A DNA stretch of 63,997 nt, filler included, from Stramenopiles sp. TOSAG23-6 (taxonomy: Eukaryota): the NCBI GenBank assembly GCA_900128565.1. It is 10 parts of 10 records of this genome, joined end to end, with 100 filler letters (N's around TTAATTAATTAA, not from the genome) between each part and the next. Parts side by side here need not be neighbours in the genome. Positions count along the whole stretch, not along the records: positions 1 to 6,341 come from LT636717.1; 9 more parts are not named here. One strand, given 5' to 3'. The notes below the pieces were generated by a model that searched no databases, was not told where the DNA came from, and saw nothing but the letters and a program-made list of their open reading frames with translations. The position numbers and the translations under genes were made by a program. This document shows positions 2,971-59,348 of the stretch, in pieces. How positions within the stretch are numbered: position 1 is the first letter of the stretch; each line of letters starts with the position of its first letter.

Positions 2971-3245
2971 ACTTATATGTTGCTAAGGTTTCATATTTTA
3001 ATTAGTTTAACAAATTACTTCGAAATAAGAATGGAAATTACTGTAATCTACGTAATTATGTAACTGTTGGATGAAACTTGAGATGACTCGTAGTTTTCGT
3101 TTTGGTACAAAATTCTGTAGTAAATTCATCTTTTTTGGAGTCAGCGGAGTGAGCATGTTTGAAGTACTACACGTACTAATAATTTCATACGAATTGGTAT
3201 TCTATATCACCACGTCTTGTAATCGTGCTTGTACGCCGGTACAAG

Positions 3246-6120
3246 ATGGAAGCTTTAGACGCCGCATTCCCCACCATTGGTGAAGCCATGCCTTCAAATG
3301 TCACCACATTTGATGATAATGGTAAGAAGAAAAAGAAAAAGAAGAAGGATGCTTATGGCTTTGCAGCATTTGGTTTGTGCAAAAATGTCTTTGGTGCAAT
3401 TAGGCGCATTGGATATAAACAACCCACACCCATACAAAGAGCGGCTTTACCTCCAGCGTTGTCTGGTGCAGATATTGTTGCCATGGCTAGAACTGGTTCA
3501 GGTAAGACTGCTGCATTTATTATTCCTATCATAGAGCGTCTTCAAGTGCATAATAAACGCATGGGCTGTCGAGCAGTACTGATATCTCCAACTCGTGAGC
3601 TCGCTACTCAAACGCTTAAATTTGCACGGGATCTTTCTAAGTTTACCAACCTTCGTTTGTGTCTTCTTGTTGGTGGTGAAAGTATTGATCGACAGCTGGA
3701 TGTCTTATCAGCAAATCCTGATATTATTATTGCTACTCCTGGTCGAATCACACATTTATTAGAAGAAGTCAAAAGTTTTTCTTTAAATGCCGTTCAAGTT
3801 TTAGTCTTTGATGAAGCCGATCGTCTATTTGAGATGGGGTTTCGTGATCAATTAAATGATATTCTCAAGGCAACACCAGACTCAAGACAAACTATGCTCT
3901 TTTCTGCAACAATGCCAAAAATGTTGGTTGAATTCACACGTGCAGGATTACAAGATCCATCCTTCATTCGATTAGATACTGAGTCTCAAGTGAGTCCCAA
4001 CTTACGAATGAATTTTGTGACAGTGCGCCCTTCAGAAAAACCAGCAGCTTTATTGCATATCTGTGCAGAGATTATTGGTCCAGCACAGCAAACAATTATT
4101 TTTGTGTCTACGAAGTATCATGTGGAATTTATCACTGAACTTTTGAAAAGTGCTGGTCATCTTTGTGCCTGTGTCTATGGTGCACTCGACCCGATGTGCC
4201 GTAAAGCAAATATTGCAAAATTTCGTGCTGCTAGGGCACAATTTTTAATTGTGACAGACGTAGCCGCTCGTGGTATTGATATTCCAATGCTTGATAATGT
4301 CATTAATTATGATTTTCCAGCTAAGCCAAAGTTATTTGTACGTTTTCATTATGAATATCAATTTTTTTTTTCGTACGAAATGTTGTACCTAACAAATTTC
4401 GAATTTTTTTTTTTTTACAATACATGTGCATCGTGTTGGTCGTGCTGCTCGTCAGCATCGGAATGGTAGTGCTATTTCAATGGTAACTCCCGAGGACCTG
4501 CCATATATGCTCGACCTCATGCTTTTTCTTGGCAAGAAGCCAGATAATGGAGATGGTAGAGGTCCTAAATTTACATTAATAGCCGATGGTGGTGATACAA
4601 CTGCTATTGAAAAAAATGACTCTATGAAGAAGAAAACGATCTGCAAGCCTGAAAAGTATTCTCTATCTACGCAGCAACCTGATGAATTACACTATGGTGG
4701 ACTACCTCGATTTCTATTAGATAGTTCTGTTGAAGCATATGAAAGTTATAAAAATTCAAGTGTAGCAATACAAGAGACCGAGAGAGTGGCTCTAAATGGA
4801 TATAAGGCTTATATCCGGACACGTCCTCCAGCGTCCAAGACATCTCAGCATAGATGTAAAGAACTGCATCCTATTCTAGTACATCCTCTTTTCCGAGAAG
4901 CAGCGGAACTTTCAGGTAGCAACGCTACCGCTGAAATATTTGCTAGTAAACTTTCTAATTACAGGCCTTCTATGACTGTGATGGAAGTACAAAATTTGAA
5001 ATCTGGCAAAGGTGTTTTGGATGTTTTGAGAGCTAAGCGAATTGCACACCAGCGCCATATATATACAGTCCGTACTACCGAAAAGAAGAAGCATTCAGAA
5101 TGGTTATCTGCCGGTGGGTATGAAAATGATACAAATGATAAGCAAATGATCAAAACTGAAACTGTTTCAGGTGGAAAACGAAAGCAAAACCAGTGTAATG
5201 ATATCAGTGGTTCAGATACAATTGAAATATATAAAAAACATAAAACAAATAAAATAGCAAAATGTCAAGCAAAAATTCCAAAGCGAAAGTTATCGAAAGC
5301 GGAGAGAAAACGAATGAAAAAACAACGATTAAATCCGGCGATATCAAACGCGGTCAATATAAACATCAATACAGATGATAATACAAATAACACTACAAAC
5401 AATAATACAAAAACTCCATTAAGTTTCCGTGATAATTCAGTGTTTATTAATGTACGCCAATCGGATAGCGAGGTAGCAAGTAGTCGTGGTCTTTCAATAC
5501 GAGATAATGTCAATGGTGATACAGCTATAGCTGCTAGGCAACATATGCAAGAAGCTGTGCTCGATCTGATGCCCGATGAAGTGTCAAAATTAGGTGAACA
5601 GAGACGATTCTTCTGGGATAAGAAGAAAAGAAAATATGTAAAAACGTCATTAAATGACATAAAGGCTAATAAAAATAGAGTCAAAACTGAAAGTGGTAAA
5701 ATGGCTAAAAAGGAAGTTGGTAAGATTTATGAACAATGGTGTAAAAAGAATAAACGAAGCATTCTATCCATCGGGGAGGAAGAAGGTGGTGGTACTGCTG
5801 CAAGTACTATAGCCTTTGAAGCGCAAGGTATGGATTTAAAAACAATGCGAAGAAAAGGTTTATCTCGTGGCGCAATCCGGGAGAAAGAGAAGAAATCAAA
5901 GGCAGCTACTTCTGGTGGCGAATTGTATAGCGCAGAAACGATTCGAAAACAACGCAAAGAAAAAGAGAAAAGAAGAGCTAAAAATGGCCGAGGGCGTGGT
6001 GGTCGTGGTCGAAGTAGAGGTAGAGGAAGTGGTGGACGTGGTGGTAAAAAGATTCCAGGATTTGGGCAAGGTAGAGGTTCCAAATTTGGCAAGGCGGGAT
6101 CAAAAAAGCGACGACGTTAA
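3246..6120 (+). CDS. DDX54: DEAD-box RNA helicase DDX54/DBP10; exons 3246-4337 and 4426-6120
   Basis: Q motif, ARTGSGKT, PTRELA, DEAD, SAT; motif VI (KLF|VHRVGRAAR) is restored by removing 4338-4425; DBP10CT-like WDKKKRKYV...KTESG and RGG tail. Confidence 0.93.
4338..4425 (+). mobile_element. Repeated non-canonical intron (GT-AT), 88 nt
   Basis: GTACGTTTT...TCGTACGAAA...GTACCTAAC...ACAATACAT; removal joins two DDX54 ORFs in frame. Confidence 0.9.
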
Positions 6121-6341
6121 TTAACCATAGTAATATGATATTCTAATAAAATCAGTTTAAATTGTTTTAATTTTCATATGTGCTTCATTAGTAGAAAGAG
6201 TCCATGAACAAATATTCTTATCAAAACATCATCATTTTACTCAAGTCATTTGAAATAAATGTAACCCATGAGAGATGCAAAATGAAATAGCTCAGCAAGC
6301 AGGCTTCCAAACGGGTCCCCCACGATCGTACTAGCTGCTCT

Positions 6342-6441
6342 NNNNNNNNNNNNNNNNNNNNNNNNNNNNNNNNNNNNNNNNNNNNTTAATTAATTAANNN
6401 NNNNNNNNNNNNNNNNNNNNNNNNNNNNNNNNNNNNNNNNN
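6342..6441. other. Artificial contig linker (44 N + TTAATTAATTAA + 44 N); also at 12773, 19202, 25629, 32049, 38466, 44883, 51299 and 57704
   Basis: Identical 100-nt spacer with stops in six frames; the contigs between linkers run in descending length order from 6341 to 6305 nt. Confidence 0.98.
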
Positions 6442-6520
6442 AAAAATATTTCAAAAAAAAATCGTTAGGTACAAAATTTCGTACGAAAAAAAATTGAATT
6501 TGAAAAAATATAAAACGTAT
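6442..6520 (-). mobile_element. Repeated intron, truncated by contig end; AT donor
   Basis: Minus strand ATACGTTTTAT...TCGTACGAAATTTTGTACCTAACG...GAAATATTTTT. Confidence 0.8.
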
Positions 6521-7788
6521 GCGCAATGCTAAACCCATAATTGAAATTACGAGTCAAAACTGTTTCAGGAATTCTTTTTTCTGTTTGTAGAGATCTACCT
6601 GAACTATTATTTATGACCGATAAAGCTGTAGCTGGTGAAATACCTGATGATTTCAAAGCAAGTAATCCTTCGCACGCTACAATAAGATGAGTTGCATTTA
6701 GACAATTATTGATGGCTTTTACAGAGTGAGCTGATCCTATTGGACCAACAACGACGACTTTACCTTCCTTGCTAAAGGTGCTGGAAACAAATTCTAGGGC
6801 TCGTTGAGACGGATTCTTTTGACCTCCAATCATCGATGTCAAAGAACCCTGAGCTGCACCAGAAGGACCGCCACTTACTGGACAATCAACATAATCTATT
6901 CCATATTGCGATAAATCTTTAGCTATTTGAACTGATAAAGTTGGATCTCCCGAAGTCGCATCAATCACTAAAGCACCACTCTTCAAAATTGCTCCAATTT
7001 TAGTACATATGTCTTTCACGATGACGCTTGTTGGTAAACAAAGCACACAAACGTCTACACTAGACAAATCCTCCAGGCTGGTCATAACAGTTGTACCAAA
7101 TTCAGCAGCATGTTGCTCAGCGATCTCTTTTGTCCTATTATAGACTAACACTGAACCAGAGCAATATTTTGTGAAACATATTTAACATTTGAAATTGTAG
7201 TATATGTTTTAATAATACGGATTTTTTTTGAGAGAAAAAGATAATTTCAAAATTTAACGTTGGAAGACTTACGTGTTTCTCTAGATGAGAAGCCATTGAG
7301 TAACCCATCGCTCCCAATCCAATGAATGCTACATTCTTTTCTTTGGATTTTTCACAAATCTTTGCCTTTTTCGCAGTATCCAATTGATTTAAAAAATGCT
7401 GTTGTTCTCTTAAAAACTTGGGCGAATAATCAACGTTGACTTTATCGAACTTTGCCGCCAAAATGATATCGTTAATGGACAGACTCTTGAGGGAATGAGT
7501 TTGAAGTGATATTGTTACCGTTCTGTACGACGTCAAGGAAATATCTGGATGATGTTGTTCAGTTTCAGCGATTTCTGCAAATGCGTTTATTGCAGACATC
7601 GCAGATTTGAAGTTACGCGCTACAAAGGAACGTTTTATCACTGGTGAGTTGTTGTCACTGTGTTTCCATAGTGGATGTGTTTGTAAAAACGAAGAAAGCT
7701 CAGCGGAAGAAAGTTCTTTGACGTCTCCTCCTCTTGTTGCACATTTCTGGCAATGCTGTTCAGCCAAAGGGGATGCCTTATTCGCCAT
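6521..7788 (-). CDS. Pterin-4a-carbinolamine dehydratase fused to 3-hydroxyisobutyrate/beta-hydroxyacid dehydrogenase; exons 7788-7273 and 7163-6521, 3' end missing
   Basis: AETEQHHPDI...LQTHS...LSINDIILA (PCD), then AFIGLGAMGYSMA, VYNRT, DCPVSGG, VKAINN (HIBADH/GarR family). Confidence 0.85.
7164..7272 (-). other. Non-family intron, GTAAGT donor, inferred AT acceptor, 109 nt
   Basis: Ends ...AAATATGTTTCACAAAATAT; no in-frame AG lies upstream of the conserved VYNRT motif. Confidence 0.65.
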
Positions 7789-8051: not shown

Positions 8052-9327
8052 ATGCTCGCTTGTGTTAGAAATACCCCAAAACATGTCCGAGTACAATTAG
8101 TCCGACACTTGTCAGCTGCGCCAGCACTTCCGGACTGCCCAAACTTTTCGTCTGGTCCAACTGCCAAACGACCAGGATGGTCATTTGACAATCTTAATGC
8201 TGCTTGGCTAGGCCGTTCTCACCGTGCTGCAGGACCGAAACAACGACTTAAAGATGTTATTGATGCCACTCACGAGTTGTTGGAACTTCCTTCAGACTAT
8301 CTTGTTGGCATTGTTCCTGCTTCTGATACAGGCGCGTATGAAATGGCAATGTGGTCCATGTTAGGTCCACGACCTGTTGATATGTTTTATTGGGAATCGT
8401 TTGGCAAAGGTTGGGTGACAGACTCTGATAAACAACTTCAACTGAAAGATCAAAATCACTATTCTGCAGAATATGGTGAGTTGCCAAATTTATCTCTGGC
8501 AAATCCAAAGCATGATATCTGCTTCACTTGGAATGGCACAACGTCGGGTGCATGTGTGCCAAACGCAGATTTCATTTCAGAAAATCGTGAGGGTCTTACC
8601 TTTTGCGATGCTACATCTGCTGTCTTTGCAATGGATCTTGAATGGCCAAAGCTTGACGTTACAACTTTTAGTTGGCAAAAGGTTTTAGGTGGGGAAGGCG
8701 CGCATGGTGTCATTGTCTTGAGTCCTCGAGCGGTAGAAAGACTTGAGAATTTTTCTCCCGAGAGACCTTTGCCTAAGATTTTTCGAATGACAAAAAATGG
8801 AAAACTTGACGAAGCAATTTTCAAAGGGTCTACAATCAATACTCCATCTATGCTATGTGTTGAAGATTGTCATGATGCTCTAAATTGGGTTCGAAATATT
8901 GGTGGTTTAAAAGCAACAATGGCACGTGCAAATGAAAATCTTTCAGTTATTGAAAAATTTGTTTCTGAGAATGAGTGGATTGACTTTCTTGCAAATGACC
9001 CTTCATCACGTTCAAATACATCAGTTTGTCTTACACTAGATGCGAAACCTGAAGATGTCAAGGCAATGTGTACACTATTGGAGGAATCAGGTGCTGCATA
9101 TGATATTGGCTCGTATAGGGATGCTCCGCCAGGTCTTCGCATTTGGTGTGGTTCAACTGTTGAGTCCAGTGACTTACGTGTATGTTTTATATGAATTTCT
9201 AATTTATTTTTTTTTTTCGTATGAAATGTAGTACCTAACGATTTTTTTTTTGAAATATTTTTTCACAATACGTGCCCTAATGCCCTGGTTAAAATGGGGA
9301 TATGAGCAATGTTGTATTAAGAAATAA
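8052..9327 (+). CDS. serC: Phosphoserine aminotransferase (alphaproteobacterial/Methanosarcina type) with probable mitochondrial presequence; exons 8052-9179 and 9274-9327
   Basis: [50 protein letters not shown]; spliced tail [15 protein letters not shown]. Confidence 0.93.
9180..9273 (+). mobile_element. Repeated non-canonical intron (GT-GT), 94 nt
   Basis: GTATGTTTTATATG...GTACCTAAC...GAAATATTTTTTCACAATACGT; TACGTG direct repeat at both junctions. Confidence 0.88.
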
Positions 9328-9391: not shown

Positions 9392-10877
9392 TTAATCAAC
9401 GATTTCAATTTTCTTATGTTTTTTACATACTAATGTATGCGCGTCTAGAAACAATTTATTTCTCCAATTTGATTTACTCAATTTTTTACCATCCATCTCC
9501 TTCTCAAGAATTTCATCGGCTTCTTTTATTGATTTTGCAGCTTTAAGTTTTGCTAATCGTCGCCAAAACATTATCAATGCATTATTTTCATCAGGGTACT
9601 TGCACAACTCGCCATTGGCTTGGGCACACAAATCTTTGACCCTTCTTAGAGGATGTTTCAGTTTACGATGCATTTGAATACCACTTGCAATTTCTAAATC
9701 TTTTATACTAATTTGGTAATCTGTTAAAGGTCTTTCTATAGGGGCAGGTTTGTTTGGAATAACAAATGCTGCTGCGCATCTCCTTTTACCTGCGTCATCT
9801 TCAGCCAGAATAACTTTAAACAAATGAGTAGGAACTGCTATACCATGTATTGTGAAAAAACATGAAATCACAAAATAAAATCGTTAGGTACGAAATTTCG
9901 TACGAAAAAAAACTGTACATAAAACATTGAAAAAAACTAAAACATACATGATGTCCAATCAGAGGATATTGAACTAATTGAACTTTCTCACTTTTGGACA
10001 TTTTATCAGGAAGAAAAAGTGGCCCAGATATAACAAAAACATGATCGAAAGGCTTCCAGTTTTGTTTGGACACCGTTGAACTATTTGGGTTATTTTGGTT
10101 ATTTGGGTTGGGAAGACTTTTACGTTTGAGAGATTCACTATATTGACTATTGTCGATCGTATTGTCTACTTGAGTTTGACTAGTTTTATTCACTTTATTA
10201 TTCTTTGGTTTCTTCTTTATACCCTTCACTAATTTTCGCGTAAGATATTCTAATCTAAGCCAATCAGAGCCATTGAAACACCTGTCAAGTGAAAATATTC
10301 TTACAGTGCTCTGATATTAGTAAAATTGTAGGAAAAATAAATAAATTTGAAATTGTTTCTAGACTACACACATTTCCTGTGGCACTATATTTGATGATAG
10401 TTGAAAAGTTGCATCGAGAGTTTGTTGTGTTTCCTTATGATTAGCTGCAGCAGCAAGGTGTCCCTTAGAATATCCACTATTTTTATAATCAGACGCTGTT
10501 TGATTAAGATGTTTTGGGACTGCTTGGTCAGATGTGAAACGAGAATGACTTCGAGAAACACCACGTTCTTTCTTGCAAAAACTCTCCTTGGTCAGGTGCT
10601 CTGCCACCCATTCTGGTAGGCGAAGGCGGGTGTTTATAGAAGTGACGTAGCTATCACTTTTTTCCTCTACAATATGCACAGTAGGAATACCATATGGGCA
10701 AATTGAATTGAACTTTGGCTGCAATTGCACTTGCACTGTAGGACTTGTAACCGGGTCCGGGTCTTTTTGAACTGCACCTGTGTCAGTTTTATAGAAATAA
10801 CGAAAACAATTATCAATGGTTATACCGAGGATAATACCCGCACCTAAACCATTATTGAATCGTTGCCCAAAAAGCAT
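9392..10877 (-). CDS. DNA/RNA non-specific endonuclease (EndoG/Nuc1 family); exons 10877-10372, 10281-9948, 9844-9392
   Basis: PEWVAEHLT, DYKNSGYSKGHLAAAANH, SNIVPQ, VISGPLFLP, IAVPTHLFKVIL. Confidence 0.9.
9845..9947 (-). mobile_element. Repeated non-canonical intron (GT-AT), 103 nt
   Basis: Family motifs present; restores YPLIGHH|GIAVPTH. Confidence 0.9.
10282..10371 (-). other. Canonical GT-AG intron, 90 nt
   Basis: GTGTGT...TACTAAT...GAATATTTTCACTTGACAG; restores NIVPQEMCFNGSDWLRLE. Confidence 0.85.
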
Positions 10878-11183: not shown

Positions 11184-12719
11184 TTAACGACGTCTTTGGG
11201 AAACTTTAAGCTTTGCCATTTTCTTTGCTAAAATATGTTTATAGTCACGAATTGCACCATCGAATTTTGTGACACCTTTGTCTTCACAGACCCAAATTTC
11301 ATTTGCAACTTGATCAATTAAACGAAAATCATGAGAAACTAAAACTACGCCACCTTTAAACATTTTAATTGCTTCAACAAGACCCTGAACAGCCTCAATA
11401 TCTAAATGATTTGTCGGCTCATCGAGTAAAAGCACTCCGCATGTATTGTGAAAAAATATTTTTTTTTAAATTCGTTAGGTACAAAATTGCGTACGAAAAC
11501 AAAATTCGATTTTTTTGTTAAAAAAAAAATAAAACATACTAGGAGTCATGGCAATCATAGCAAATACAAGTCGACTCCTTTGACCATCACTTAGTAAACC
11601 AATGGGTGATGTTTGATTTCCTCGTGTAAACCCAAAATTACTTAAATAAGCAATCCATGCTTCTGCACTTCTTGGTCGACCAGTCCCTTTCGCCACAGAT
11701 TTTGGAGGAAAAGTCTTTTGCATAAATTCTAGAGGCGAAAGATCTAAATCAAGAACATCAGCACTGTGTTGATGGTACAGCGCCATTTTTAATTTACTGT
11801 GCGTTTTTACTGCACCTGTAGTGGGTAACAATTCCCCACTCATTAGTTTTAAAAGAGTTGACTTTCCACAACCATTAGGACCAACCAAAGCTACTCTTGA
11901 ATCATAATCAACAGCTATATTCAAATCTTCATACAAATAATCCTCCTTCTTACCGCTGTACCCAAATGAAACATTATCAAAAGGCATTACAGGAGGGGGT
12001 AAACGATCAGTCTCTGGAAAAGTAAATACCAAAGATGACTCACGCACCTGTGGCTTTGCTACGGCATCATTTTGAATTTTTTCTAAAACTCTTTTTTTAG
12101 ACTTTGCCGAAGCTGCCTTTCCATTTGCTTTATTCACTCGAACGTAAGTTGATAACTTCGCCATGTCAGCTTGTTGCTTTTCGTATTGCTTCACCTGCAC
12201 TCTTTCTTCATCAGTAGTCACTTTTACAAATGTCTCATAATTACCTCCATAGTACTTCAGTTTAGCTCCTGCACTTCCAGAACCTCCGCTATCAAACCAA
12301 GGATTGGGTTTTAACCAAATTGTATCTGTACATACAGCATTCATAAAATCTTCTGAATGAGTTACAACTACTAAACATTTATTCTTTGGGTAATTTGCTA
12401 AATGTTCCTCCAACCATACACATGCTTCCAAGTCTAAATGATTTGTTGGTTCATCCAAAAGTAAAAGCGAAGGCGCGGCAAATAAAGCTTTTGCTAGTGA
12501 AACCCTCATCCGCCAACCTCCAGACATGTTTTTAGTTTTTCTATCCATTGGCACTAATCGATCACAGAATCCAAGACCACTAAGAATTAATCGAGCACGT
12601 GGTTCTGAACCTACTGGGTCAAGTTCATCTAGACGGTCGTATATGGCCTCCAGACGATCATCTTCAGGTCCTTCCTCCTCCATTATTAACTCAGCTAATG
12701 CTTCTAGTTTAGCACACTC
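11184..12719 (-). CDS. ABC-F family ATPase (ABCF2/ARB1-like), 5' part missing; exons 12719-11540 and 11440-11184
   Basis: [23 protein letters not shown] twice, [26 protein letters not shown]. Confidence 0.92.
11441..11539 (-). mobile_element. Repeated non-canonical intron (GT-AT), 99 nt
   Basis: Family motifs; gives [16 protein letters not shown] (an in-frame AG 6 nt further downstream is an alternative). Confidence 0.8.
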
Positions 12720-12772: not shown

Positions 12773-12893
12773 NNNNNNNNNNNNNNNNNNNNNNNNNNNN
12801 NNNNNNNNNNNNNNNNTTAATTAATTAANNNNNNNNNNNNNNNNNNNNNNNNNNNNNNNNNNNNNNNNNNNNCTCCTTCGATGGAAAGAAAAT

Positions 12894-12986
12894 GTATCTT
12901 TTTATTTTTTTTCAAATTCCAATGTTTTTTTCGTACGAAATTTTGTACCTAACAAAAACAATTTGAAATATTTTTCCAAAATACAT
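12894..12986 (+). mobile_element. Repeated intron (GT-AT), 93 nt; 5' side probably mis-joined
   Basis: Family motifs; its upstream flank duplicates the exon end and donor at 14432-14474. Confidence 0.8.
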
Positions 12987-15160
12987 CTGCGTCAGCTATC
13001 GCACTTGGTCATTCTAATGTAGCATCAATATCGTCCGCTTCAGCAACGTCATTAGTAGCTGCGTGTGAAGTCCCAAGATTGTTCTTGAGGAGAGTAAAAC
13101 ATGGTATAATGACACGTGCTCCAGCCCCAACCGGTAGAGGTGGTGTTCATAAAGCAGCTTTGACAATGAGGAAAATGTTACGTAAACAAAAAGGTGGTCA
13201 GTATAACGTTAATCGTCTGTGTTCGTTTGATCAAATAAACTTTGCTTTATCTGGTGCATCAACGGAAGAGAATTTATCTGGTGTTTTTTGTGGTGGTGTT
13301 CGACCAATCTGGATACTTTGTGTTCATGGTGAAATCATAGTAATGCCTTTAGTCTTACCACATAAAGAAAAGGTGAGTATGTTTAATGGCATGCCACCCG
13401 TGACTACTTTTGCACCTTTTAGTTCACCGTTTAATCCTGGAGGTTTTGTGTATTACCATCGTTCAGGTGCACTTCGTATTTGTCAATTTTCAACACCAGA
13501 GGATGAAGCAGACGGTGCTAGTAAAAATAACGAAACTGGTGCTGAGCCACGTGGTGCTCTTCGTAGTCACTTTAGTGTACATGGCGGTGGTTCTATCGTT
13601 GTGCGAAAGGTTGATATGAAATGTTCTCCTCGACGTATTGTTTACATGGGTGATGCTGTCGTAAATCCTAATAACAATTCTTTAGGGGAAGGTGAAGATG
13701 AAACTTTATTACCAACATATGCAGTTTTATTTCAAACAGAAAGAGCTCGCGATATTCGTCGTGAAGCAACAGAAGAAGCTCTTCAAGTAGACGTTATTGC
13801 TGATGGATATGATCAACGTCAGCGTGATAATTATATTAATGATAATTATTGTGAAGCGAAGAGAGACATGGGTGGTGCACCTCCACTTTTTGTTCGATCG
13901 TATGATGTACGACTTATTCAATGTGGTGGTGATGGTGTTGGTTCTTGTACTGAAATATCTCGAATAGAATTAAAACCAAGAGAAGTAGGTACATGTATGA
14001 CTTTATTGTCACTTCCATTGAGCGAAACGGATCATTCAAAGAAAGAGGCTGCGGTAGCTGTTGGAACAATGCTTATACGCCCAAAAAATGAAGATGAAGA
14101 AGCAATGGGACGTGTAGTATTGTATTCTGTGAAACATGTAAATGCAAAAAGTGCGAATGCGGATGGAGTAGATGAAGAAGAACAACAACAACAAACAATA
14201 CCTGTCTTGAAAGTAACATATGAAAAAGAATTTAGAGGTGGTGTTAGTGCAATAACACAGATGAAGCTTCGTAAATATATAGCTCTGAGTTCCGGGTCTA
14301 AAATTTTCCTTTTTAAATGGATGAAAGAGTCACTTGTAGGTCTTGCCTTCTTTGATGGACCTGTTTACATCCACTCCTTAATGGCAATTCGTGATTTTGT
14401 TGTGTTTAGTGATGTTCATAAATCTGTGCAACTCCTTCGATGGAAAGAAAATGTATCTTTTTATTTTTTTTCAATTTTTTGTCTAAATTTTTTTCAAAAC
14501 ATTTTGTACTTAACAAATTTTAGTTTTTTTTTGAAATATTTTTCCAAAATACATGATCGACGTTTAGTTCTATTAGCCAAAGATTATGACCCATTAGATT
14601 CGACCGCATCATCATTTATGATTAATGACCGTCAACTTGGACTTGTCGCAGCTGACGAACAAAGTAATTTGACTGTTTTTAATTATTCGCCATTGGATGT
14701 TCATAGTAGAGGTGGACATAAACTTCTTGTAGGGGCCGATTTTCACCTTGGTCAAAAAATTTTATGTATGAATCATCGTCGTATGCTTCCTGATCGCGTT
14801 GGTCGGAAAGTATTACGGTATGCTTCTCTTTTTGGAACATTGGATGGAGGTATTGGTGCGTTGGTACCTATTGATGAAGGTGTATTTCGTCGATTACACA
14901 ATTTACAACGTGCAATGGTGATGGGTCTTTCTCAGAATGCAGGATTAAATCCATGGACATATCGAACATGGAGAGAACCTGGTGGGCACGGTTGTCTTTT
15001 GCGTAATCCCAAAAGACGCATTGCTGACGGGGTTGTTCTTTGGAAATATCCAGATTTAGATTATACGATGCAATTGAATTTAGCTAGATGTATTGGTAGT
15101 ACACCAGAAATGATTTTAGATAATTTAATGCGAATAGATCTAGCCACAATATTATTGTAA
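12987..15160 (+). CDS. CPSF1: Cleavage and polyadenylation specificity factor subunit 1 (CPSF160), C-terminal part; intron 14453-14554
   Basis: GVFCGGVRPIW, LVGLAFFD, SDVHKSVQLLRW, LLAKDY, SRGGHKLL..ADFHLG, FGTLDGGIG, AGLNP. Confidence 0.9.
14453..14554 (+). mobile_element. Repeated non-canonical intron (GT-AT), 102 nt, in frame and stop-free
   Basis: GTATCTTTTT...GTACTTAAC...GAAATATTTTTCCAAAATACAT; restores WKEN|DRRLVLLAKD. Confidence 0.88.
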
Positions 15161-15439: not shown

Positions 15440-18400
15440 ATGATGTCAGGTAGATATACATGTTATGAATTATACATATTAATTTTATTGTTTGTATGTT
15501 TTAATGGTCTCTCCGTGGAGAATCCTTCTCTGAAAGTATATTTTAATGTGACAAAAGTGGATGCACATGACTCATTGTCGTCTACTCCAAACATACGTAT
15601 TGAACAAATATCTATGGAAAAAAATGAATTGATTGTAAATGTAAACACAAAAAGAATTGATCAAAAGCATATATTATGCTTTTCAATCTCAAAAATCTCC
15701 GAAGAATCTGAAGAAAAGGTAGATTATTCTTCTTTGAGTGTATTATGCGATAATGGTACAATAAATACGTTTCTCACATCTGAAGTCACCTCAGAAATAT
15801 ATGTATTATCATCATACGCCATGTTTATCAATAGTAGTAAATTTAGGGTAAAGGCAAGTATATATATGAAATCACCTTTATTTATAGATGGTGTTCCTGT
15901 GAGTAGCGTCTTACACTTGAAGAGTGTTGACACTATCAAAAATAGTGGACCAGTTACATTTTCCGAAAAAGTTGTTGATTTTTCTAAAACGACAAGTAGT
16001 ATAGAAGATGAAGAAGTTTTTTTTCACCCAGAAACTGGAGGTTTACCTTTGTCATATGTATCATCTCCTTTACGTAAACAACTGTGGAAGTCTACAGAAC
16101 AACTGGATAAACAAACTAATGATGGTGAAACTTCTGATGGAGAGATAGTTAGTTCTTTGTTGAGTGTATTACCTACAGAATCAATACCCATAGAATCTTT
16201 AGTCAGTGCTGCTAAGAAGGACCGCGTGCACGCATGGCGATTTGATAATGTTATTCTCGATGTCGAAGCAAAAAATATTATATGTATGTTTTTTAGTATG
16301 ATGTTTTTTTCGTTTTTTTTTTCATACGAAATTTTGTACCTAACAATTTTTTATTTTTTTATTTTTTACAATACATTAATACAAGGACTAAAACAACCCA
16401 ACGTTGACCTTCCTACCAAACCAATCACTACTACAAACTATAAAAGATTCCTTCAAGCAATCTCCCAAAATTGGACAAAGACTTCCTCTGATCTTTGGAG
16501 TATTGAGACTAATATGTTTATCAAATTGAGTCCACCCATTCTGACATTCTTGCCAACTTTACCTGGATCAAAATTATTTGTCTTGCAAAAATATTTTGAT
16601 TCTCAGTTGTATCACAGGAATAAATTGAACACAACATATTCATATAATAAAACACATATTACGACAAATAATATAATGACACGATGTAAATCTAATGTTC
16701 ATCACGGTTTTATAGGTTGGCGTTGTGATTTTGGTCAACATAAAGATTGTCTTGGAGATCCATTACATATCAATTCATGTCGTAAGCTAATGTCTTTTAT
16801 CAGTCAATTAAGAAATCCTTCATTTTTTCCGTGTCGGTGTCTGGATATAGAAGATTTAAGTCACTTTCACGAAAATAAAAATGACACAATATTATCAACG
16901 GCTTCACCAATAAATACGAAAAATGGTACAAATAATGCAAATAGACAAAAATATGATGTAAAAGAAGAAAAAATTGATTGTATTACTCAACCCGTTGTAA
17001 TATTTTCACTACCACTTCCGTTATACTATTGGCATGTAATGACAGAAGGCATTCTTCCACTTGCACATACTATATCACACATTGAACGCCGTATAAAACA
17101 TGATAGTCGATATAAAGAGAAAAATTATACTTCGCCACTTTTGGTAGTAGCACAACCATGGACGAGTCGATTAGTTCCACAATTTGCTCAGGAAATGTTG
17201 AAATCTTTAGGAGGTCCCGTCATTTTATCAATGGAAGATTTTTCAAAAGGTTCAGGTTTATCTAATGTAAGCCGTTTTTGTATGTTAGATGTAACTATAG
17301 GTTTTTATCCACAAATAACACAACATAGTGAAGTAAGAGCAGCAGCTTTGTTTCTCATGAATAAGATGAGTGTCCGTCGGAGAACGTCTCGATTACTTCC
17401 TCATATACCTCATACATCTGCCATTGATGATGAATTAATAAAATCAAAAAAAACAAAAATGAAAAATGTCAGTCCACAAAAACCTCGCGTAGTTTTTATT
17501 CAAAGATCTCGACGATGTGCTGCAGCTGATGCAAGTTGGATTAAAGTATCCAAAGAAATAAATGGAAATAGTACAGGAGATTTATTTGATAATAATTTTG
17601 CTATGGTTCGCAATCATACATCATCTAATAGTACTTTTGTGAATAAAACTAATGAAAAATCAAAACAAAAAAAAATCAAAGCATCAATTCGTACGGAAAA
17701 TGCTTCTCGTGTCATTATTAATATGGATGATCTTGTAGCTGTTGCCCTAAATCTTGGTGCTGATGTTGAAGTAGTTACCATGGAAAGCTTGAGTTTACAA
17801 AAACAAATCGAGGTAGCTCATAGTGCTGATATTTTAGTCTCCGCTCATGGATCAGCGTGGGCTAATGTTATGTTTATGCGGACTGATTCCGCGGCAATTC
17901 AACTATTAGGTTATGGTTTTAAAGAAGGCTGTTTAGCTTTAGTTCATCAACAAAGAATGCTTTTTCAGAATTCTACTTTTCCTACAGATGATTTTTGCGA
18001 TGGTATTGGAGTCGATTTTCCTGCATTGGTACCAGGTACTTACTTTGAATTGGAAGAAATGGATCCGCATCATTTCAAACCGTTATTTACTTTTCCTGAT
18101 CGCTATTGTCAAAAGAATAAATCCTCATCTAACTTGACTAAAAGTTATGAAGAGTGTAGAAAAATAGAGGCAAATAATGAAATGCTAGCACGGGAGTCTC
18201 CAAGATGGCTTTGGAGCTATCATTTTAAAAGAGCATATCATTACTTCAAAGGCGCTCATTTTTATGTTGATACAAAGAGATTTTATCGTGTTATGAAACG
18301 AGCCTTGGCTGTTGTTCTTGCAGCACCGGAAACAGAAAAAGAAGCTTCTGTTGCATATGACGTCAGAGAAGAATTCGAAACGAAAGAATATTTCCAAAAG

Positions 18401-19201: not shown

Positions 19202-19301
19202 NNNNNNNNNNNNNNNNNNNNNNNNNNNNNNNNNNNNNNNNNNNNTTAATTAATTAANNNNNNNNNNNNNNNNNNNNNNNNNNNNNNNNNNNNNNNNNNN
19301 N

Positions 19302-19384
19302 AAAAATATTTCAAAAAAAAAATCGTTAGGTACAAAATTTCGTATGAAAAAAAAAATCAAATTTGAAAAAAAAATAAAACATAT
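19302..19384 (-). mobile_element. Repeated intron, truncated; AT donor
   Basis: Minus strand ATATGTTTTATT...TCATACGAAATTTTGTACCTAACG...GAAATATTTTT. Confidence 0.8.
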
Positions 19385-21208
19385 GTTCCTTACGAATAAT
19401 AATATCATTATTCAATGCGTTGTGTTCGACTGTTTCTTCTTCATCAGTCGTGTTGTACTCTTCTGATGTCATGTCGACTGTATCGATACATCTTATTTGA
19501 TGATCTGTTGAATTCTTTATTGTTCTGCTAAGAATTCTTATTGGATCATTGTCTTTATTCCTTTTTTCTGGAATAGAGTGTACAGTATCTTTAGGGTTAG
19601 GTTTTTTTTCTGGAATAGAGATTACATTATCTTTAGAAAAAACATCCGAAGAATCTTCTGTTCGTAATAAACGCGGGCAAAATATCTTTTCAGTGCGTAC
19701 ACTGTAGTTATTATCAGAATCATCATCGTCACTCATTTCTTCATCATTTGTTGGTACCGACACAACAGTACGTATTGTAAAAAAATATTTCAAAAAAAAA
19801 TCGTTAGGTACGAAATTTCGTATGAAAAAAACATTAAATTAGAAATTCATATAAAACATACACGTTGAACGTGATCTGTGAGCCATTGAAGCATACTCAC
19901 TTGATCAGATACAGACAATGCAATAATACCCTGTCTGATTTGGTATGGGGTGAAACTTTTCGAAGGTACCAACATATTGTCAGATTTAATAGTTTCAACG
20001 GCTTCATTGTTGACTGAGTTTGAATCATCATTACACAGATTTGGTTCACTATTTACTGATTTTACCTCCTTACCATGAACTCTCTCTTGAATTGTATCCT
20101 TTTCAATAATATCTACTTGTTGTTGTTGGTCGTGATTTTTATTCATGGAAGAAACAGTTGCTTTTTTATGATGCATTCGAACTCTTGATAGCTTGTCGTT
20201 TCGTTTTTTTCGTTGTCTTTCAGATGTCAAGGAACATCTACTTTCAGTATACAAATTTTCCAATGACAACGTAAGACTGTCGTTTCTTTTGTCAGCTACA
20301 TTTGAAGAACATCGTAATTTGCTATTGCGGCCATGATAAAGTGACGTCCTACTCGCTCCATGGCAAAACTTTTTATTTTGTGTTTTTAATGATTTCGGTC
20401 CTAATGTCATGCGCCGTTTCGATTGAACAATTTTAGTACGAAATTTACCACGACGTTCAAGTTCATGCATACTTGAACGATTCGATACAAACCTCACAAA
20501 ACCTCTACCATTGTTGGTATTTTTGATATTTTTCTTGGTTCTTAGAGTAGATTTGTTTTTTGGTGTGAAGCTCATTGGAACACTAGATTTACTACTTAAT
20601 TTTATTCGTTTGGGCTGACTCTGACTGGTAAGAGTTGAGTTAGGTCGTTGATTTTCTTCGTTTCCAGAAATATCTCTAACATTTCTCGTCAATCTTCGAC
20701 TTTTCTTGGTCTGTTGTTTTGGATTTCGCTCTGCAAAAGATGCTACAGTAGAACGACGTGACAGCTCACGTTTGTCTCTAGAAGATTTGGTAGTCTTTCC
20801 ACTCATTTTTTCATTCTGTTTCTTCTTCTTTCNCCATTCATCCAGCTTTTCCCGCCGAGTTAAACGACGTTGAACTAAATTGTTTTGCATTATATCGTTA
20901 TTTGGGTCAACGCCTCCTGATTTCCATGCTTCGTTGGCAAACACTTCCCCGGCAGTCCAACCTTCTTCACTCGTACCTAAAGATGAAATCTTCGATGCTC
21001 CTAACTTGGATGTAGTTTTTGTTTTACCTTCTCTCTCAGGTCGAGAATCCATCGATTTTTTTTTCAAAAGACGAAGTGGTTTGCCTAGATGTGATGATTT
21101 TAACATCTTTTTTGGGGTTTCTCGGCGTATCACGGGTGAGTTCTGTTGTACCACCCTCAAAGCTCTTCTACGCATCTTCGCGGAACGTACTCCACTTTCC
21201 ACTACCAT
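19385..21208 (-). CDS. Basic low-complexity protein of unknown function; exons 21208-19862 and 19769-19385, 3' end missing
   Basis: Two ORFs joined in frame by removing 19770-19861. Confidence 0.65.
19770..19861 (-). mobile_element. Repeated non-canonical intron (GT-GT), 92 nt
   Basis: 5' end nearly identical to the 9180 copy; ends ACAATACGT. Confidence 0.85.
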
Positions 21209-21567: not shown

Positions 21568-22504
21568 ATGAACACATTAAACAAGGGTGAAGATGCCCAG
21601 AAGCAAGCCACGTTAGCAATGGCCGATCGTCTCGAAGTTGCGGGTAGACAGCTTCAAGAGCGTGATCGTATTCGTCAACAACTGAAGAAGCAAGAAGAGG
21701 AGAAAGCAGAACTTGATGCCAAAGAAGCTGCAATAGAGGAGTATAAACGTCAGTATGAAGCAAATGCTAAAGAGCGTTTCGAGCGCTGTAATCCTGATAT
21801 CATTGAAAGAAAAAAAGAGCTACAAGAAGTAGATGATGATGTAATTGCACAAGAACGTGCACAGGAGCGTGAAAAAAAGAAGGAAAACGAAGAATTGGAC
21901 GACTCAGAAGAAGCTGTACTCCGCAGAATGCGTGCCAAGCGTATGCGGGAATTACGTGCAAAGCAGCAGAGAAGAAAACAGGGTTATGGTGACTATAGAG
22001 AAATTATTGAATCGGAGTTTTTACAAGAAGCATGTAATGCAGAATTTGTGGCAGTTCACTTTTACCACCGAGAGTTTGTTCGTTGCAAAGTGATGGATAA
22101 ACATCTTGAACGCATCTCTAGGGCACATGATACAGTGAAAATTCTAAAACTTAATGCAGAGAAAGCACCATTTTTTGTCAACAAGCTAGGAATTAAAATT
22201 CTTCCTACTGTAATAATGTTCAAAAATGGTGTTTCGTGTGATCGTATTACTGGTTTTGAACGAGTTCTTGGTGACGATAAATGTACGTCTATGTTTCAAT
22301 TTCAATTTTTTTTTCAGCAAATCTATATCTTATGGTTGCTTATACCTAACAATTACCGAATGTGACATATTCCTTCACAATATATGTCGAACACGTGCAT
22401 TGGAGTATCGCTTAATAGATGGTGGAATCATGGAGGATGAGGCTCCTATGGGAGCCTACCCAGATGATGAATTTACAGATGAAGAACTGTCTGATGAAGA
22501 CTAA
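21568..22504 (+). CDS. Phosducin-like thioredoxin-fold protein (TXNDC9/Plp1-like); exons 21568-22282 and 22386-22504
   Basis: GYGDYREI, VAVHFYH..F.RCKVMDKHL, NAEKAPFFV.KL.I..LP; spliced GDDKCRTRALEYRL. Confidence 0.88.
22283..22385 (+). mobile_element. Diverged family intron (GT-AT), 103 nt
   Basis: GTACGT...ATACCTAAC...ACATATTCCTTCACAATATAT. Confidence 0.8.
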
Positions 22505-25628: not shown

Positions 25629-25728
25629 NNNNNNNNNNNNNNNNNNNNNNNNNNNNNNNNNNNNNNNNNNNNTTAATTAATTAANNNNNNNNNNNNNNNN
25701 NNNNNNNNNNNNNNNNNNNNNNNNNNNN

Positions 25729-32018: not shown

Positions 32019-32469
32019 AAGAATGTAAATGATGTAGTAAATGTTTTTNNNNNNNNNNNNNNNNNNNNNNNNNNNNNNNNNNNNNNNNNNNNTTAATTAA
32101 TTAANNNNNNNNNNNNNNNNNNNNNNNNNNNNNNNNNNNNNNNNNNNNCTCCGATTCATAAATAGTTACTTGTTTTCTAGTCCTGACTTGTCTTAACGAC
32201 TTGGAGGGAGCGTAATTGTTGGCGTGAGCCGCAATTAGGTTGGTTTTCCTCAAAACCACAGAATCAAGAAAAACAATCTCTCCATCTTTTTATCTTTTTA
32301 TAATAAAGTATATTAATTTATTGAATAAATCAAAAAACAATGCAAATAAATCAAAAAACAATGCGAATTGGGATGATTTATTTTTATGTTTTATATAGAA
32401 GTTGTCCTTTTCCAGCAATCTATAGTACGAATATTTATAAATCAATTTATGGTAAAAAAAAGTATAATT

Positions 32470-38417: not shown

Positions 38418-38565
38418 ATATTCGAATTATAAAACAAATCCATTGTAGAAAAAAAATGAAAAAGGNNNNNNNNNNNNNNNNNNNNNNNNNNNNNNNNNNN
38501 NNNNNNNNNTTAATTAATTAANNNNNNNNNNNNNNNNNNNNNNNNNNNNNNNNNNNNNNNNNNNN

Positions 38566-42388: not shown

Positions 42389-43479
42389 ATGGATTATCAA
42401 CTAATGGAAGATGGTCGAGTAAGTTTGAATCAAGGTCCGAGTAACAGCAATACACGCAATGTGGGATTGAATAGAAACAATGGTTGGGATTCGGTGTCAA
42501 GTAGTAATATTCGTGGTTGGGGAAGTACTAGTTCTAGACGTCATACTCAACAAACAGAGTTTCCCAACGAGCATGGGATAAATAAAGTAGCTGAAGATAT
42601 TAATTCATGGACACAATCATTATATTCTTGTGTGGAGCGGCTAAATGCCAACGAAATAGGCGGTCCAAAAGACACCCCAGAATTACGTAGGCGACTTCGA
42701 GTTGCGAGTGCTGACGCGACGAGAAATGTTCGTAATATCCATTCTGCTTTTCAGGAAATCGGTACGAATAAAATGGCTTCTAGTTCAAAAAAGTTCCACA
42801 AGTTGAAACGCGAATTTGAGGAAGTTTATACTCAGTTGGAGGAAGCACAAAAAAATGTCCGTCGTAAACTAAGAAACTCAATGTATGTTTTACTTTTTTT
42901 CAAATTCGAAATTTTTTTCGTACGGAATTTTGTACCTAACGATATTTTTTTTGAAATATTTTTCCAAAATACATTCAACTTGCTCAAACTCGTATAAGAA
43001 AACTTTCTTCAAATAGTGATATTCTTATGAAATCAGTAACTGGAAATAAATCTTCTATTGTAGATATAGATTCAAATTTTGAATCGAGTAATCGTCGCAG
43101 AGAAAGTAGGGATTTTGTTTCTCTACCACCACAACAACAATTATTACATGCATTTAAGCCTATTGACGTGGAACGCACTCGGTTAGAGGAAGACGAGAAA
43201 GACGCTGCTCAATTATATCAAGATTCTGTTGGCCTTCAAGAGTTAATGCAAGATCTTGGAATAATTGTTGAAAGCCAAGGACAGAAAATTGTGGAAATAG
43301 ATGATAACATTGCTGCGGGAACAACGCGAACAGGTGATGCTGCATCAGCTTTAACTGGGGCTGAAAAAAGTGACCGAGCCGCAAGAAAGAAAAGAGCATG
43401 TTTTATTCTCCTTTGTCTAGGGGGCTTAGTATTATTATTGTGGTTGTTTTGGCCAAGTTTATTTAAAAAATCACATTGA
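42389..43479 (+). CDS. Qa-SNARE syntaxin (STX7/12, Pep12-like); exons 42389-42882 and 42975-43479
   Basis: IGGPKDTPELRRRL Habc motif; SNARE motif DLGIIVESQGQKIVEIDDNI; C-terminal TM helix. Confidence 0.88.
42883..42974 (+). mobile_element. Repeated non-canonical intron (GT-AT), 92 nt
   Basis: Full consensus; removal puts both syntaxin ORFs in frame. Confidence 0.9.
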
Positions 43480-52583: not shown

Positions 52584-52693
52584 ATGTATTGTGGAAAAAT
52601 ATTTGAAAAAAAAATCTAAAAAAATTGTTAGGTACAAAATTTCGTACGAAAAAAAATTCGATTTTTTTGTTAAAAAAAATAAATAAAACATAC
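52584..52693 (-). mobile_element. Repeated intron (GT-AT), 110 nt, bridging exons of two different genes
   Basis: Full consensus; donor is phase 0 (importin) and acceptor is phase 2 (PDK1 PH). Confidence 0.8.
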
Positions 52694-57862: not shown

Positions 57863-58347
57863 ACTAGTAGAACGAGTCAGAGACATTTCTACTTTATTAC
57901 CCGATTCACTGAATGATCGTCGTTTTTTTGAATGATTATTACGTAAATTGTTTGGTTCACTTTTTGTAGACGATGATGAATTTATTTTGGAAAAATATTT
58001 CAAAAAAAAAATTTTGTAAATTTGTTAGGTACAAAATTTCGTATGAAAAAAAAATATTTCAAAAAAAACTAAAAAAAATATTTCAAAAAAAAATAAATTC
58101 GAAATTGAACAAAAATAAAACATACATGTAATGTAATTGTACTTAATTTTGGAAAACTTTCCGATCGCGAATTTTTCCTTTTTTTAGTATAAGATTTATT
58201 ACTTGAAGTACTTTGACTACTTGATGAGATGACCATATTATTTTTTGTTGATGAATGATTTTGATCAAAAGTCTTTGTATCCGTGTTAGGGTTAGGNTTG
58301 TGAGTAGGGTTAGGGTTAGGGTTGTGAGTAGGAAACAATGATTTGTC

Positions 58348-58391
<44 letters not shown>

Positions 58392-59348
58392 CAAAAATAG
58401 TTGATGTTTCACCTAAATTATCTAAAAAAGTACAAATTTTTTGTTCTTCTTTAAGAAATTCTTTTGATAATTTTGACATTTCACTTATTTTTTTTTTATG
58501 TGTAGTTAGAGAATTCATTGCATTGGTTTGTTGACCTAAAGCTTCTTCCAATACTGATGTCGTTTGTCTTACATTTTCTTCCGCTACTCTAAAATTTTGA
58601 CGAGCTAAATTTAATTTCATTTGTGCTTGTTTTACATTTTCTGAAGTTTTATCAATTCTAGATTTTAAATTTTCTGATTCAGATGAAATAAGTTGTAAAG
58701 AAAATTGATTCACTTTATCCATTTGTTGATATTCTTTTAATTTAGTATAATGTACAACTAATCTCTTTTGGCAAATAGATGATAGAGCAACAAATGCCTC
58801 TTCAAAATCAGCTGTACGTAACTCTTCAGGGATCTTTTCTCGAATGACAAAAACTTTCGATGGTCCAAGATGCTTTTTGGAAAAATATTTGAAAAAAAAT
58901 TAAAAAAATTTTGTTAGGTACGAAATTTACTATAAAAAAAAATTCGATTTTTTTTTTTTTTAACCAAAAAAAAAATAAAACATACAGGACATGTTGTTGA
59001 GTCTTTGACTAATTCTTTCAACCAACGAAACACTTTTGATATATCGTCAACGGAATGTGTTGTTGTACAAAAGTGTAAAAGATGAGTAATTTTTTGTGAC
59101 AGAACGGATTCACTTGTACGGTGATCCTTTCGTAAATCTTCGCAAATTCGTTTCAAGTCTAACTGTGGGACAAAAAACTTATTTTGTAATTTTACTTGAG
59201 TGACAGGAGAAAGATCATTTGCTTTAAGATATTCTTCAAGCGCTGAACGCTCATATGTCTGTCCATCCGATGCTAACACTGGGTCTTTAAACAGCGCTTT
59301 AGTTAGTGGACAACACAAACTATTGGGATATTCTCGTTGATGAGCCAT
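57863..59348 (-). CDS. U-box domain protein with coiled coil and poly-Q; exons 59348-58986, 58869-58126, 57979-57863
   Basis: LCCPLTKALFKDPVLASDGQTYERSALEEYL...SPVT; frames are continuous after removing two family introns. Confidence 0.82.
57980..58125 (-). mobile_element. Repeated non-canonical intron (GT-AT), 146 nt, internally duplicated
   Basis: Ends CCAAAATAAAT; contains three GAAATATTTTT motifs. Confidence 0.8.
58285..58390 (+). repeat. TTAGGG-type repeats and a (TTG)n microsatellite inside CDS
   Basis: GTTAGGGTTAGG...TAGGGTTAGGGTTAGGG; about 14 TTG units encoding poly-Q. Confidence 0.85.
58870..58985 (-). mobile_element. Repeated non-canonical intron (GT-AT), 116 nt
   Basis: Ends CCAAAAAGCAT; joins TTCP|LGPSKVF in frame. 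Confidence 0.85.

Follow-up and report, generated by a model that had tools for sequence, protein, structure and literature searches.

The introners of Micromonas and Aureococcus were reportedly described by Huff, Zilberman and Roy in 2016. In this study, we analysed a window of 63,997 nucleotides (nt) from the genome assembly of Stramenopiles sp. TOSAG23-6 (GCA_900128565.1), an uncultured heterotrophic marine stramenopile protist, in which an 88-nt element interrupts the essential RNA-helicase gene DDX54/DBP10, and we compared this element and its multi-copy family with the described systems. The introners of Micromonas pusilla and Aureococcus anophagefferens, which are discussed in PMC7789003, are short, multi-copy and non-autonomous elements within coding sequence. 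Each is equipped with splice signals and short direct repeats, and splicing removes the element together with one repeat copy, by which the open reading frame (ORF) is restored. The present family appears to resemble them in these respects. However, their described ends are GT-AG and their direct and inverted repeats are of constant length, whereas the window family has an AT or GT 3' end, a 2-nt repeat that is variably extended and an inverted repeat of 4-7 nt.

Repeated introns that do not follow GT-AG are likewise found in the marine protist Amoebophrya. Direct repeats of 3-5 nt lie over their boundaries with the exons, and their two ends are connected by inverted repeats; these inverted repeats measure 8-20 nt, terminal dinucleotides are not conserved and no U1 was found (PMC7789003). 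In contrast, the 5' GT, a CTAAC word and a T-tract were strictly kept in the window family, no significant fold was observed, and only the 3' dinucleotide deviates. A large intron class off the GT/AG rule is also handled by the spliceosome in Fritillaria borealis, where altered factors (U2AF paralogues) take part in recognition of the non-canonical 3' end; this is an animal with 95 % non-canonical introns, whose 5' ends are altered as well (PMC13326754), whereas the 5' end of the window family is canonical. Rare GT-AT introns of human and mouse, which have U2-type signals (DGCR2) or U12-type signals (7 cases; PMC1557818), share the terminal pair but are isolated single introns, whereas here this pair would be the rule throughout a mobile family that numbers about 20 copies within 64 kb. 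ISL2EU/PHIS transposons generate a 2-bp target-site duplication, typically AT, in AT-rich targets (PMC4122938). The likeness of the window family to them is confined to the 2-nt repeat, and no transposase, long terminal inverted repeats or empty site was seen.

Introners, non-canonical introners flanked by repeats, a spliceosome adapted to non-AG ends and the rare GT-AT pair were all already known. Searches of the literature on introners and on GT-AT introns gave no report of such elements from marine stramenopiles. The consulted portions of the genome papers PMC5778133, PMC12614181 and 10.64898/2026.04.17.719054 mention no unusual introns, and their supplements could hold intron statistics.

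The 88-nt insert in DDX54

The DDX54 gene was open and conserved over 929 codons on both sides of the insert. It comprises DEAD, Helicase_C and DBP10CT domains, and motif VI becomes complete only once the 88 nt are removed. A previous examination of this DNA without database searches (the sequence-only reading) had placed the element directly before motif VI, and homology on both sides agreed with this placement. The exon 1 piece aligned with human DDX54 residues 339-422 (..KLF) and the exon 2 piece from residue 423 (LHRVGR), giving a gapless junction, and alignment to the solved structures of yeast and Chaetomium DBP10 gave a junction identical to that of human DDX54. Furthermore, the Helicase_C match stood at profile position 96 of 110 three residues short of the exon 1 end. 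When the sequence was read directly, exon 1 was found to end with the codons AAG TTA TTT at 4337 and exon 2 to open with GTG CAT CGT GTT GGT CGT at 4426 (ORF 4426-6117), that is, KLF and VHRVGR as had been claimed. The frame shift ascribed to the insert was also correct, because 88 mod 3 = 1, and the frame is restored on removal of the insert.

From its 5' end, the insert consists of GTACGTTTTC..., a core with CGTACGAAAT, the branch-site-like word GTACCTAAC, a T13 run and the terminal motif ACAATACAT. No AG was present between GTACCTAAC (4385-4393) and 4425. An AG near 4454 had been pointed out as the first past the branch-like motif, with the helicase lost if it served as acceptor, and this part of the claim stood: the first AG lies at 4454-4455, and a cut from GT(4338) to AG(4455) takes 30 nt of exon 2 and deletes VHRVGRAARQ, which is motif VI. 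The claim needs one correction, namely that this cut stays in frame.

We hold it reasonably probable that 4338-4425 is an introner copy removed by the spliceosome at a GT-AT boundary, which is occasionally GT-GT in other copies. Introners of this kind would be mobile elements, AT-rich and 88-146 nt long, that occur in many copies and act as spliceosomal introns; each supplies its own 5' splice site GTAYGTTTT, the branch word TACCTAAC and a T-tract, and the 3' end is ..AATACAT rather than AG. In the precursor messenger RNA (pre-mRNA), the intron would run from the G of GTACGT (4338) to the T of ACAT (4425), and its excision would give ...AAG TTA TTT/GTG CAT CGT... with the intact motif VI, KLFVHRVGR. 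We infer the removal at the RNA level, the type of spliceosome and the transposon origin from the observations described below.

The element family and its ends

A family profile built from ten copies was searched with nhmmer over the 64 kb (E <= 1e-3), which gave 20 matches, 19 of them independent, or approximately one per 3 kb. All 20 were sense to the longest ORF that they touched (chance ~2e-6 for the 19 independent copies). The orientation of this multi-copy family was sense only, which fits a filter such as splicing imposes; DNA excision would not impose one. The match at 12888-12993 was not counted as independent, since it lies at a contig start where the flank of the copy at 14445-14561 is found again. 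Within 12873-12993, the sequence upstream of the copy at 14453 and the 5' portion of this copy (14432-14561) recur, after which the contig continues with different sequence; this contig start is probably an assembly chimera formed via the repeat. Several contigs stopped inside element copies, which shows that the repeat fragments the assembly.

Twelve copies were aligned (alignment A1), the thioredoxin-fold gene copy being taken from its own GT at 22283. The 12 complete copies used for frame and identity comprised 11 in the window and one on an unrelated public metagenome contig (L002); for boundary counts, the second U-box copy (57980-58125) was added to give 13. Removal of GT...(A/G)T joined the flanking ORFs in frame in 12/12 complete copies (chance ~2e-6). 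At junctions crossed by a domain profile (Helicase_C in DDX54, CPSF_A and ABC_tran), the pieces met gaplessly. Taken together, many similar copies at unrelated loci, the sense orientation and the restored ORFs are what is expected of introners. Pairwise identity among the 12 ranged from 53 to 93 % with subfamilies present, such as the pairs 9180/19861 (90 %) and 9947/L002 (93 %), copies were 88-146 nt long, and the 11 measured in the window had a guanine-cytosine (GC) content of 15-28 %. L002 is 3.2 kb long with 35 % GC, and its one copy splits an ORF whose frame is restored on removal. Downstream of the gene with this element, at ~2150-2230 in the minus-strand view, L002 also contained CCCTAAA/TTAGGG-like words resembling telomere repeats. 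Another metagenome match (L001), in DNA of 51 % GC, was dismissed as chance, leaving L002 as the sole real copy among the public contigs found.

The 5' ends were highly constrained. G at +1 was found in 12/12 aligned copies, the T at +2, the A at +3 and the TTT at +6 to +8 were invariant, and every aligned copy began with GTAYGT or GTATCT, in agreement with the U2-type GTRWGT. The exact word GTACCTAAC occurred 16 times in the window, and 29 occurrences with at most one mismatch were counted against 7.3 expected. Within A1, TAC.TAAC was invariant and TACCTAAC was constant save for one TACTTAAC; the word lay 33-44 nt from the 3' end across the family, with a T-run in between. A branch-site consensus (CTAAC / yUnAy) and a pyrimidine tract, as in U2-type introns, were thus present, whereas the terminal AG of U2-type introns was absent: of the 13 complete copies, 11 ended in AT and 2 in GT. 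The final T, like the 5' GT, was found in 13/13, and position -2 was A in 11 and G in 2 (in A1, last base T in 12/12 and -2 A in 10 and G in 2). Judged from the nucleotides alone, the signals look like those of a yeast-type U2 intron (GTATGT, CTAAC, T-tract) save for ..ACAT at the end instead of ..ACAG. In 8/11 copies, the tail downstream of the branch word contained no AG, and the first AG was out of frame in 5/11; in DDX54 and the ABCF gene, the first AG is in frame but deletes conserved residues. Canonical AG use can thus not account for the family as a whole.

Side features of single copies were also recorded. The copies in the CPSF_A-domain gene (14453-14554, 102 nt) and the Glyco_transf_61 gene (16284-16376, 93 nt) were multiples of 3 with no in-frame stop, and their unspliced messenger RNA (mRNA) would be translated with an insert of 31-34 residues. 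Two copies, at 6502-6520 (-) and 19358-19384 (-), started with ATACGT and ATATGT instead of GTAYGT, their 3' ends being lost in gaps; either +1 is A there, or the element lacks its first GT and the AT is part of the flank. Diverged copies with altered 3' tails were found in an LRR gene (40368-40450, +) and an EF-hand gene (45016-45116, -). Close to where its end was expected, the LRR copy offered in phase just ..GGT and ..AAT, and no in-phase AG was present.

Public gene models illustrate what a forced GT-AG rule yields. P0001 (DDX54) and P0003 (ABCF) are evidently gene models of the same gene set as the window. P0001 makes a forced GT-AG cut, reads into the element and skips HRVGR, that is, motif VI; P0003 takes as acceptor an AG lying 6 nt further downstream, by which two residues before Walker B are lost. 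P0001 also lacks two more pieces from within the intact genomic ORF, which points to small introns called spuriously. It is conceivable that the element is removed imprecisely or not at all, either through a canonical AG (4338-4455, or as in the public model) or by retention, leaving a helicase without motif VI in a pseudogene or recently disrupted gene. The in-frame GT(4338)-AG(4455) cut, the GT-AG pair of P0001 with its loss of HRVGR, and unspliced copies in RNA libraries are compatible with this. However, about one copy per 3 kb lies in intact, conserved housekeeping ORFs whose frame is exactly restored in 12/12, nearly half of the copies (5/11) have their first AG out of frame, the 929 DDX54 codons are open and all copies are sense. 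We accordingly regard imprecise or absent removal as quite unlikely.

Three metatranscriptome runs and one seawater metagenome, assembled as contigs, were compared with window positions 2900-6341. Independent metagenome contigs entered the element from unique exon sequence on both sides (3825-4365 and 4400-6314), which places the element in the DNA of the wild population at the DDX54 site. No spliced junction or empty site was observed in the read contigs over 2900-6341. In the bins at 4280-4509, contig depth exceeded that of the unique flanks ~6000-fold in DNA and thousands-fold in two total-RNA runs, and less in the poly(A) run; these ratios give no copy number because the depths sum other copies and other organisms, and the excess is compatible with thousands of copies.

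The window itself consists of contigs of ~6 kb chained by N44-TTAATTAATTAA-N44 linkers, and contigs side by side in it are not adjacent in the genome. It has 31-40 % GC across most of its length. Genes are very densely packed, and their long ORFs, read with the standard code, lack in-frame TAA/TAG. Rfam gave no match on the window.

Table 1. Positions of the DDX54 features, complete family copies, other introns and linkers in the window.
Feature	Position	Strand	Remarks
DDX54/DBP10 exon 1	3243..4337	+	365 codons, ends ..PAKPKLF; Pfam DEAD 1.1e-50, Helicase_C 4.6e-18
Element copy, putative intron GTACGT...ACAT	4338..4425	+	88 nt; nhmmer E 8.8e-17 to family model
5' splice-site-like end GTACGTTTT	4338..4346	+	family consensus GTATGTTTT
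Conserved core CGTACG in near-palindrome TTTCGTACGAAA	4372..4377	+	alignment A1
Branch-site-like word GTACCTAAC	4385..4393	+	includes CTAAC; 33 nt from 3' end
T13 run, polypyrimidine-tract-like	4404..4416	+	sequence
3' terminal motif ACAATACAT	4417..4425	+	without AG; sequence
DDX54/DBP10 exon 2	4426..6120	+	VHRVGRAAR..., Pfam DBP10CT, RGG tail; stop 6118-6120
First AG past branch-like word	4454..4455	+	sequence
PCD-HIBADH gene intron GTAAGT...CACAAAATAT	7164..7272	-	109 nt; non-family or decayed; 3' boundary +/- one codon
Aminotransferase class-V gene copy	9180..9273	+	ends ACGT; direct repeat TACGT/G
EndoG-like nuclease gene copy	9845..9947	-	direct repeat CATG
EndoG-like gene intron, fits canonical GT-AG	10282..10371	-	90 nt; restores EndoG spacing PQ+4+N+3+W+2+LE
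ABCF gene copy just before Walker B	11441..11539	-	PSG vs PCG
CPSF_A-domain gene copy	14453..14554	+	starts GTATCT; Pfam CPSF_A profile 159 to 162 across junction
Glyco_transf_61 gene copy	16284..16376	+	93 nt, open in frame
Family copy ending ACGT	19770..19861	-	upstream flank ACGT; nhmmer, frame restored
Thioredoxin-fold gene copy, diverged	22283..22385	+	nhmmer, frame restored
Syntaxin/SNARE gene copy	42883..42974	+	nhmmer, frame restored
Importin-beta-like gene copy	52584..52693	-	nhmmer, frame restored
U-box gene second, downstream copy	57980..58125	-	146 nt, internally duplicated GAAATATTTTT segment, ends AAAT
U-box gene copy, upstream	58870..58985	-	extra in-frame AG 3 nt before end
Linkers	6342-6441, 12773-12872, 19202-19301, 25629-25728, 32049-32148, 38466-38565, 44883-44982, 51299-51398, 57704-57803		

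Register of the cut and the machinery

The two exon bases before GT were the same as the last two element bases in 10/13 copies (P ~1.5e-8). This 2-nt repeat was AT in most cases and GT in two; where it extended further, to 6 nt at most, the extension looked like chance. Because of the repeat, most copies cannot tell GT-AT from AT-AC. In the three exceptions (DDX54 with TT, ABCF with TA and U-box with CT), the terminal copy was still AT and the upstream copy was changed; on the sequence comparison, this fits a constrained terminal splice site and an ordinary coding upstream copy. The sequence-only reading had pointed out that the TT before the DDX54 donor differs from the AT at the element end, and this was correct. 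Of the three copies able to separate GT-AT from the shifted cut, DDX54 is the best: its upstream TT is not matched by the terminal AT, and GT-AT can in principle be told from TT-AC. The further claim that KLF versus KLY in complementary DNA (cDNA) would locate the junction held in one direction only: a cut offset of -2 gives KLYVHR, whereas offsets of -1, 0, +1 and +2 all give one mRNA (KLFVHR), and the GT-AT, TG-CA, TA-TG and AC-GT registers are indistinguishable by cDNA at this copy.

The residue preceding xHRxGR was then counted in the best 150 DDX54 representatives from 1.8 billion proteins, 148 of which show the motif. It was F in 139, Y in 7, L in 1 and W in 1 of the 148, and KLFVHR was the commonest form (80). 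Y is the usual residue at this position in other DEAD-box families, and conservation alone is not decisive between F and Y.

At the ABCF gene, the copy matched its earlier description, in which GT-AT and the shifted cut yield PSG and PCG, respectively. A conserved Arg stood 14 residues before LLLDEP in 118/119 homologues, and only removal of 99 nt keeps this spacing; the ABC_tran match reached position 125 of 137 at the last-but-one residue of exon 1. The junction residue was S in 13 and C in 4 of the 119 homologues. For a GT-AT cut here, the exon would have to have undergone two changes since the insertion at AT, one of them synonymous and the other conservative. The U-box copy at 58870-58985 had also been called unambiguous, which did not hold: it has gained an in-frame AG 3 nt before its end that allows a third product, CPHL, in addition to CPL and CHL, and it is an unclean test for this reason. 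No conserved domain was found at the U-box junction that bears on P versus H.

Removal of the same 88 nt shifted 2 nt upstream would make the introns AT-AC mostly, and TT-AC at DDX54 with the product KLYVHRVGR, exploiting the known A/C compatibility of the first and last intron bases. Such a register gives a textbook AT-AC pair in 8/13 complete copies, and the purine-U repeat AUGUAUGU keeps R-U-R-U-R-U in both registers; it also has on its side the seven Y among the 148 DDX54 orthologues and the C in the three closest ABCF relatives. However, the intron would then begin with TT in DDX54, with TA in ABCF and with CT in the U-box copy, where changes matter most; the U-box copy would end in GC, and the two ACGT copies would become GT-AC. 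Moreover, the GT/..T boundaries of the GT-AT register are invariant in 13/13, and F outnumbers Y by 139 to 7. The shifted register is hence distinctly improbable in our estimation. On balance, GT-AT appears favoured over the 2-nt-shifted TT-AC cut, a register that we infer from the comparison of copies and homologues.

The same GT-AT junction might also be cut by a diverged minor spliceosome (a U12-type-like class), in which U11/U12-like recognition tolerates non-AG ends; GT-AT is a documented U12-type pair and can be spliced (PMC1557818). Pairing of small nuclear RNAs with GUAUGUUUU and UACCUAAC would then be expected. GTATGTTTT agreed with the U12-type 5' RTATCCTTT at 7/9 positions and TACCTAAC with the U12-type branch TCCTTAAC at 6/8; in addition, one copy has GTATCTTTT, and the two truncated copies start with ATAYGTTTT. 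The U12-type branch site lies ~10-20 nt from the 3' end. In the family, in contrast, the branch-to-end distance of 33-44 nt is well past this short spacing, +5/+6 is GT and not CC, the site equals the yeast-like U2-type GTATGT, and a long T-tract is present. A U12-type-like class consequently seems unlikely to us.

Finally, removal might proceed with no spliceosome, by ciliate-like DNA excision, by an excision of RNA guided by its structure, such as has been put forward for the non-conventional introns of Amoebophrya and Euglena, or by ribosomal bypassing. The short direct repeats at the boundaries of 10/13 copies and a 6-7 bp helix able to link both junctions are in line with such routes. Nevertheless, the RNA fold signal was absent (z = 0.02), the consensus structure (alifold) reached only -1 kcal/mol, and nothing beyond this 6-7 bp AU-rich helix can join the two element junctions. 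The element is present in metagenome DNA at the DDX54 locus, no TA boundaries were found, and the strictly sense orientation would be needless for DNA excision. In translational bypass (T4 gene 60, mitochondrial byps), the take-off codon equals the landing codon and phase 0 is kept. At DDX54 these codons are TTT and CAT, and 4/11 copies lie in phase 1 or 2; the codon phases and the unmatched codons together exclude ribosomal bypass. We consider the non-spliceosomal routes as a whole highly improbable.

Several specific candidates were accordingly rejected. A ciliate-type internal eliminated sequence was discarded on the lack of TA ends, the presence in metagenome DNA and the sense orientation of all copies; a ribosomal bypass element on the unmatched DDX54 codons and the off-phase copies; and an Amoebophrya/Euglena-type structure-defined intron on the 6-7 bp helix as compared with an inverted repeat of 8-20 nt. 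Cleavage of the tRNA type or the IRE1 type was considered and rejected, as was stwintron-like nested splicing, for which there is no AG to reconstitute.

Origin of the element and its consequences

Among the other introns of the window, the 90-nt intron of the EndoG-like gene fits canonical GT-AG. Its tail TTTTCACTTGACAG (TTTTCAC....ACAG) resembled the family tail TTTTCACAATACAT (TTTTCAC....ACAT), and the intron may be an old copy in which T was changed to G. The 109-nt intron at 7164-7272 had no in-phase AG that keeps the HIBADH-like domain. Within this domain it was flanked by the GxGxxG strand on one side and the VYNRT strand on the other, and the same gene, which starts with a pterin-4a-carbinolamine dehydratase domain, appears from its sequence to encode a PCD-HIBADH fusion. 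A non-AG end is possibly also found in decayed descendants of the element lineage.

Several points weigh against spliceosomal removal of an introner at GT-AT. Among the three metatranscriptomes and one metagenome, no RNA or DNA contig bridged 4337/4426, and contigs cannot show absence; likewise, 0 of 10 candidate transcript-derived proteins crossed the DDX54 junction. Among proteins of similar length, exon 2 matched only the public model P0001, and the search with ABCF brought up the mis-modelled P0003 and its relatives. RNA-library contigs hold unspliced element copies, which could be pre-mRNA or contaminating DNA. We know of no established general mechanism in the major spliceosome for a 3' terminal U with a 5' G. 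AG recognition has probably been retained in the organism, as the GT-AG-compatible EndoG-like intron indicates; with AG recognition not lost, the non-AG end would be a trait of the element lineage. At the ABCF junction, the three nearest relatives carry C, the residue of the shifted register, and not S. The two-base repeat is palindromic in its contexts (AT, CATG, ACGT), and a short helix spanning the two junctions is an equally good reading of it. As for the origin, the terminal inverted repeat spans only 4-7 nt (GTAT(G)GT / ACAATAC) and no transposase was found among the 39 ORF pieces of the window scanned; a transposon origin is weakly supported for these two reasons.

We tentatively propose, as a possibility to which we give less than even weight, that the dominant intron class of this organism is a mobile element whose 3' dinucleotide comes from a 2-bp target-site duplication (AT, sometimes GT) and is not encoded by the element. 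A miniature DNA transposon would bring the 5' splice site, the branch site and the T-tract, and the last two bases would be a 2-bp target-site duplication of the ISL2EU type, a variation on the mechanism described for the introners of Micromonas and Aureococcus. The duplicated target would then supply the 3' splice dinucleotide, the cut being set by position or by AATAC and not by AG. Spread of the element through RNA by reverse splicing is also possible, and would account for the sense-only orientation as well. If the target-site origin of the 3' end is true, the spliceosome would cut at a fixed place past AATAC with the last two bases irrelevant, thousands of GT-AT introns would be present genome-wide, and older copies would drift to AG, as exemplified by the ACAG intron of the EndoG-like gene and the AG of the U-box copy. 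The choice of the 3' splice site would then be naturally uncoupled from AG, while the 5' and branch sites stay canonical.

The family also has consequences for annotation. Gene predictors bound to GT-AG mis-model genes with copies, as seen in P0001 and P0003, which lose conserved residues. Introner surveys that start from annotated introns and drop odd splice sites unless supported by RNA (PMC12130899) would miss this family. Functional inventories of an ecologically common group may thus be systematically damaged by such mis-models and by assembly breaks. If the GT-AT boundary is real, the family would provide a natural substrate for studying the choice of a 3' site without AG, with the F/Y residue of DDX54 reporting the register, and a heterotrophic marine stramenopile would join the few lineages with bulk creation of transposon-like introns. 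It would also suggest that target-site duplication itself is a route to a splice site.

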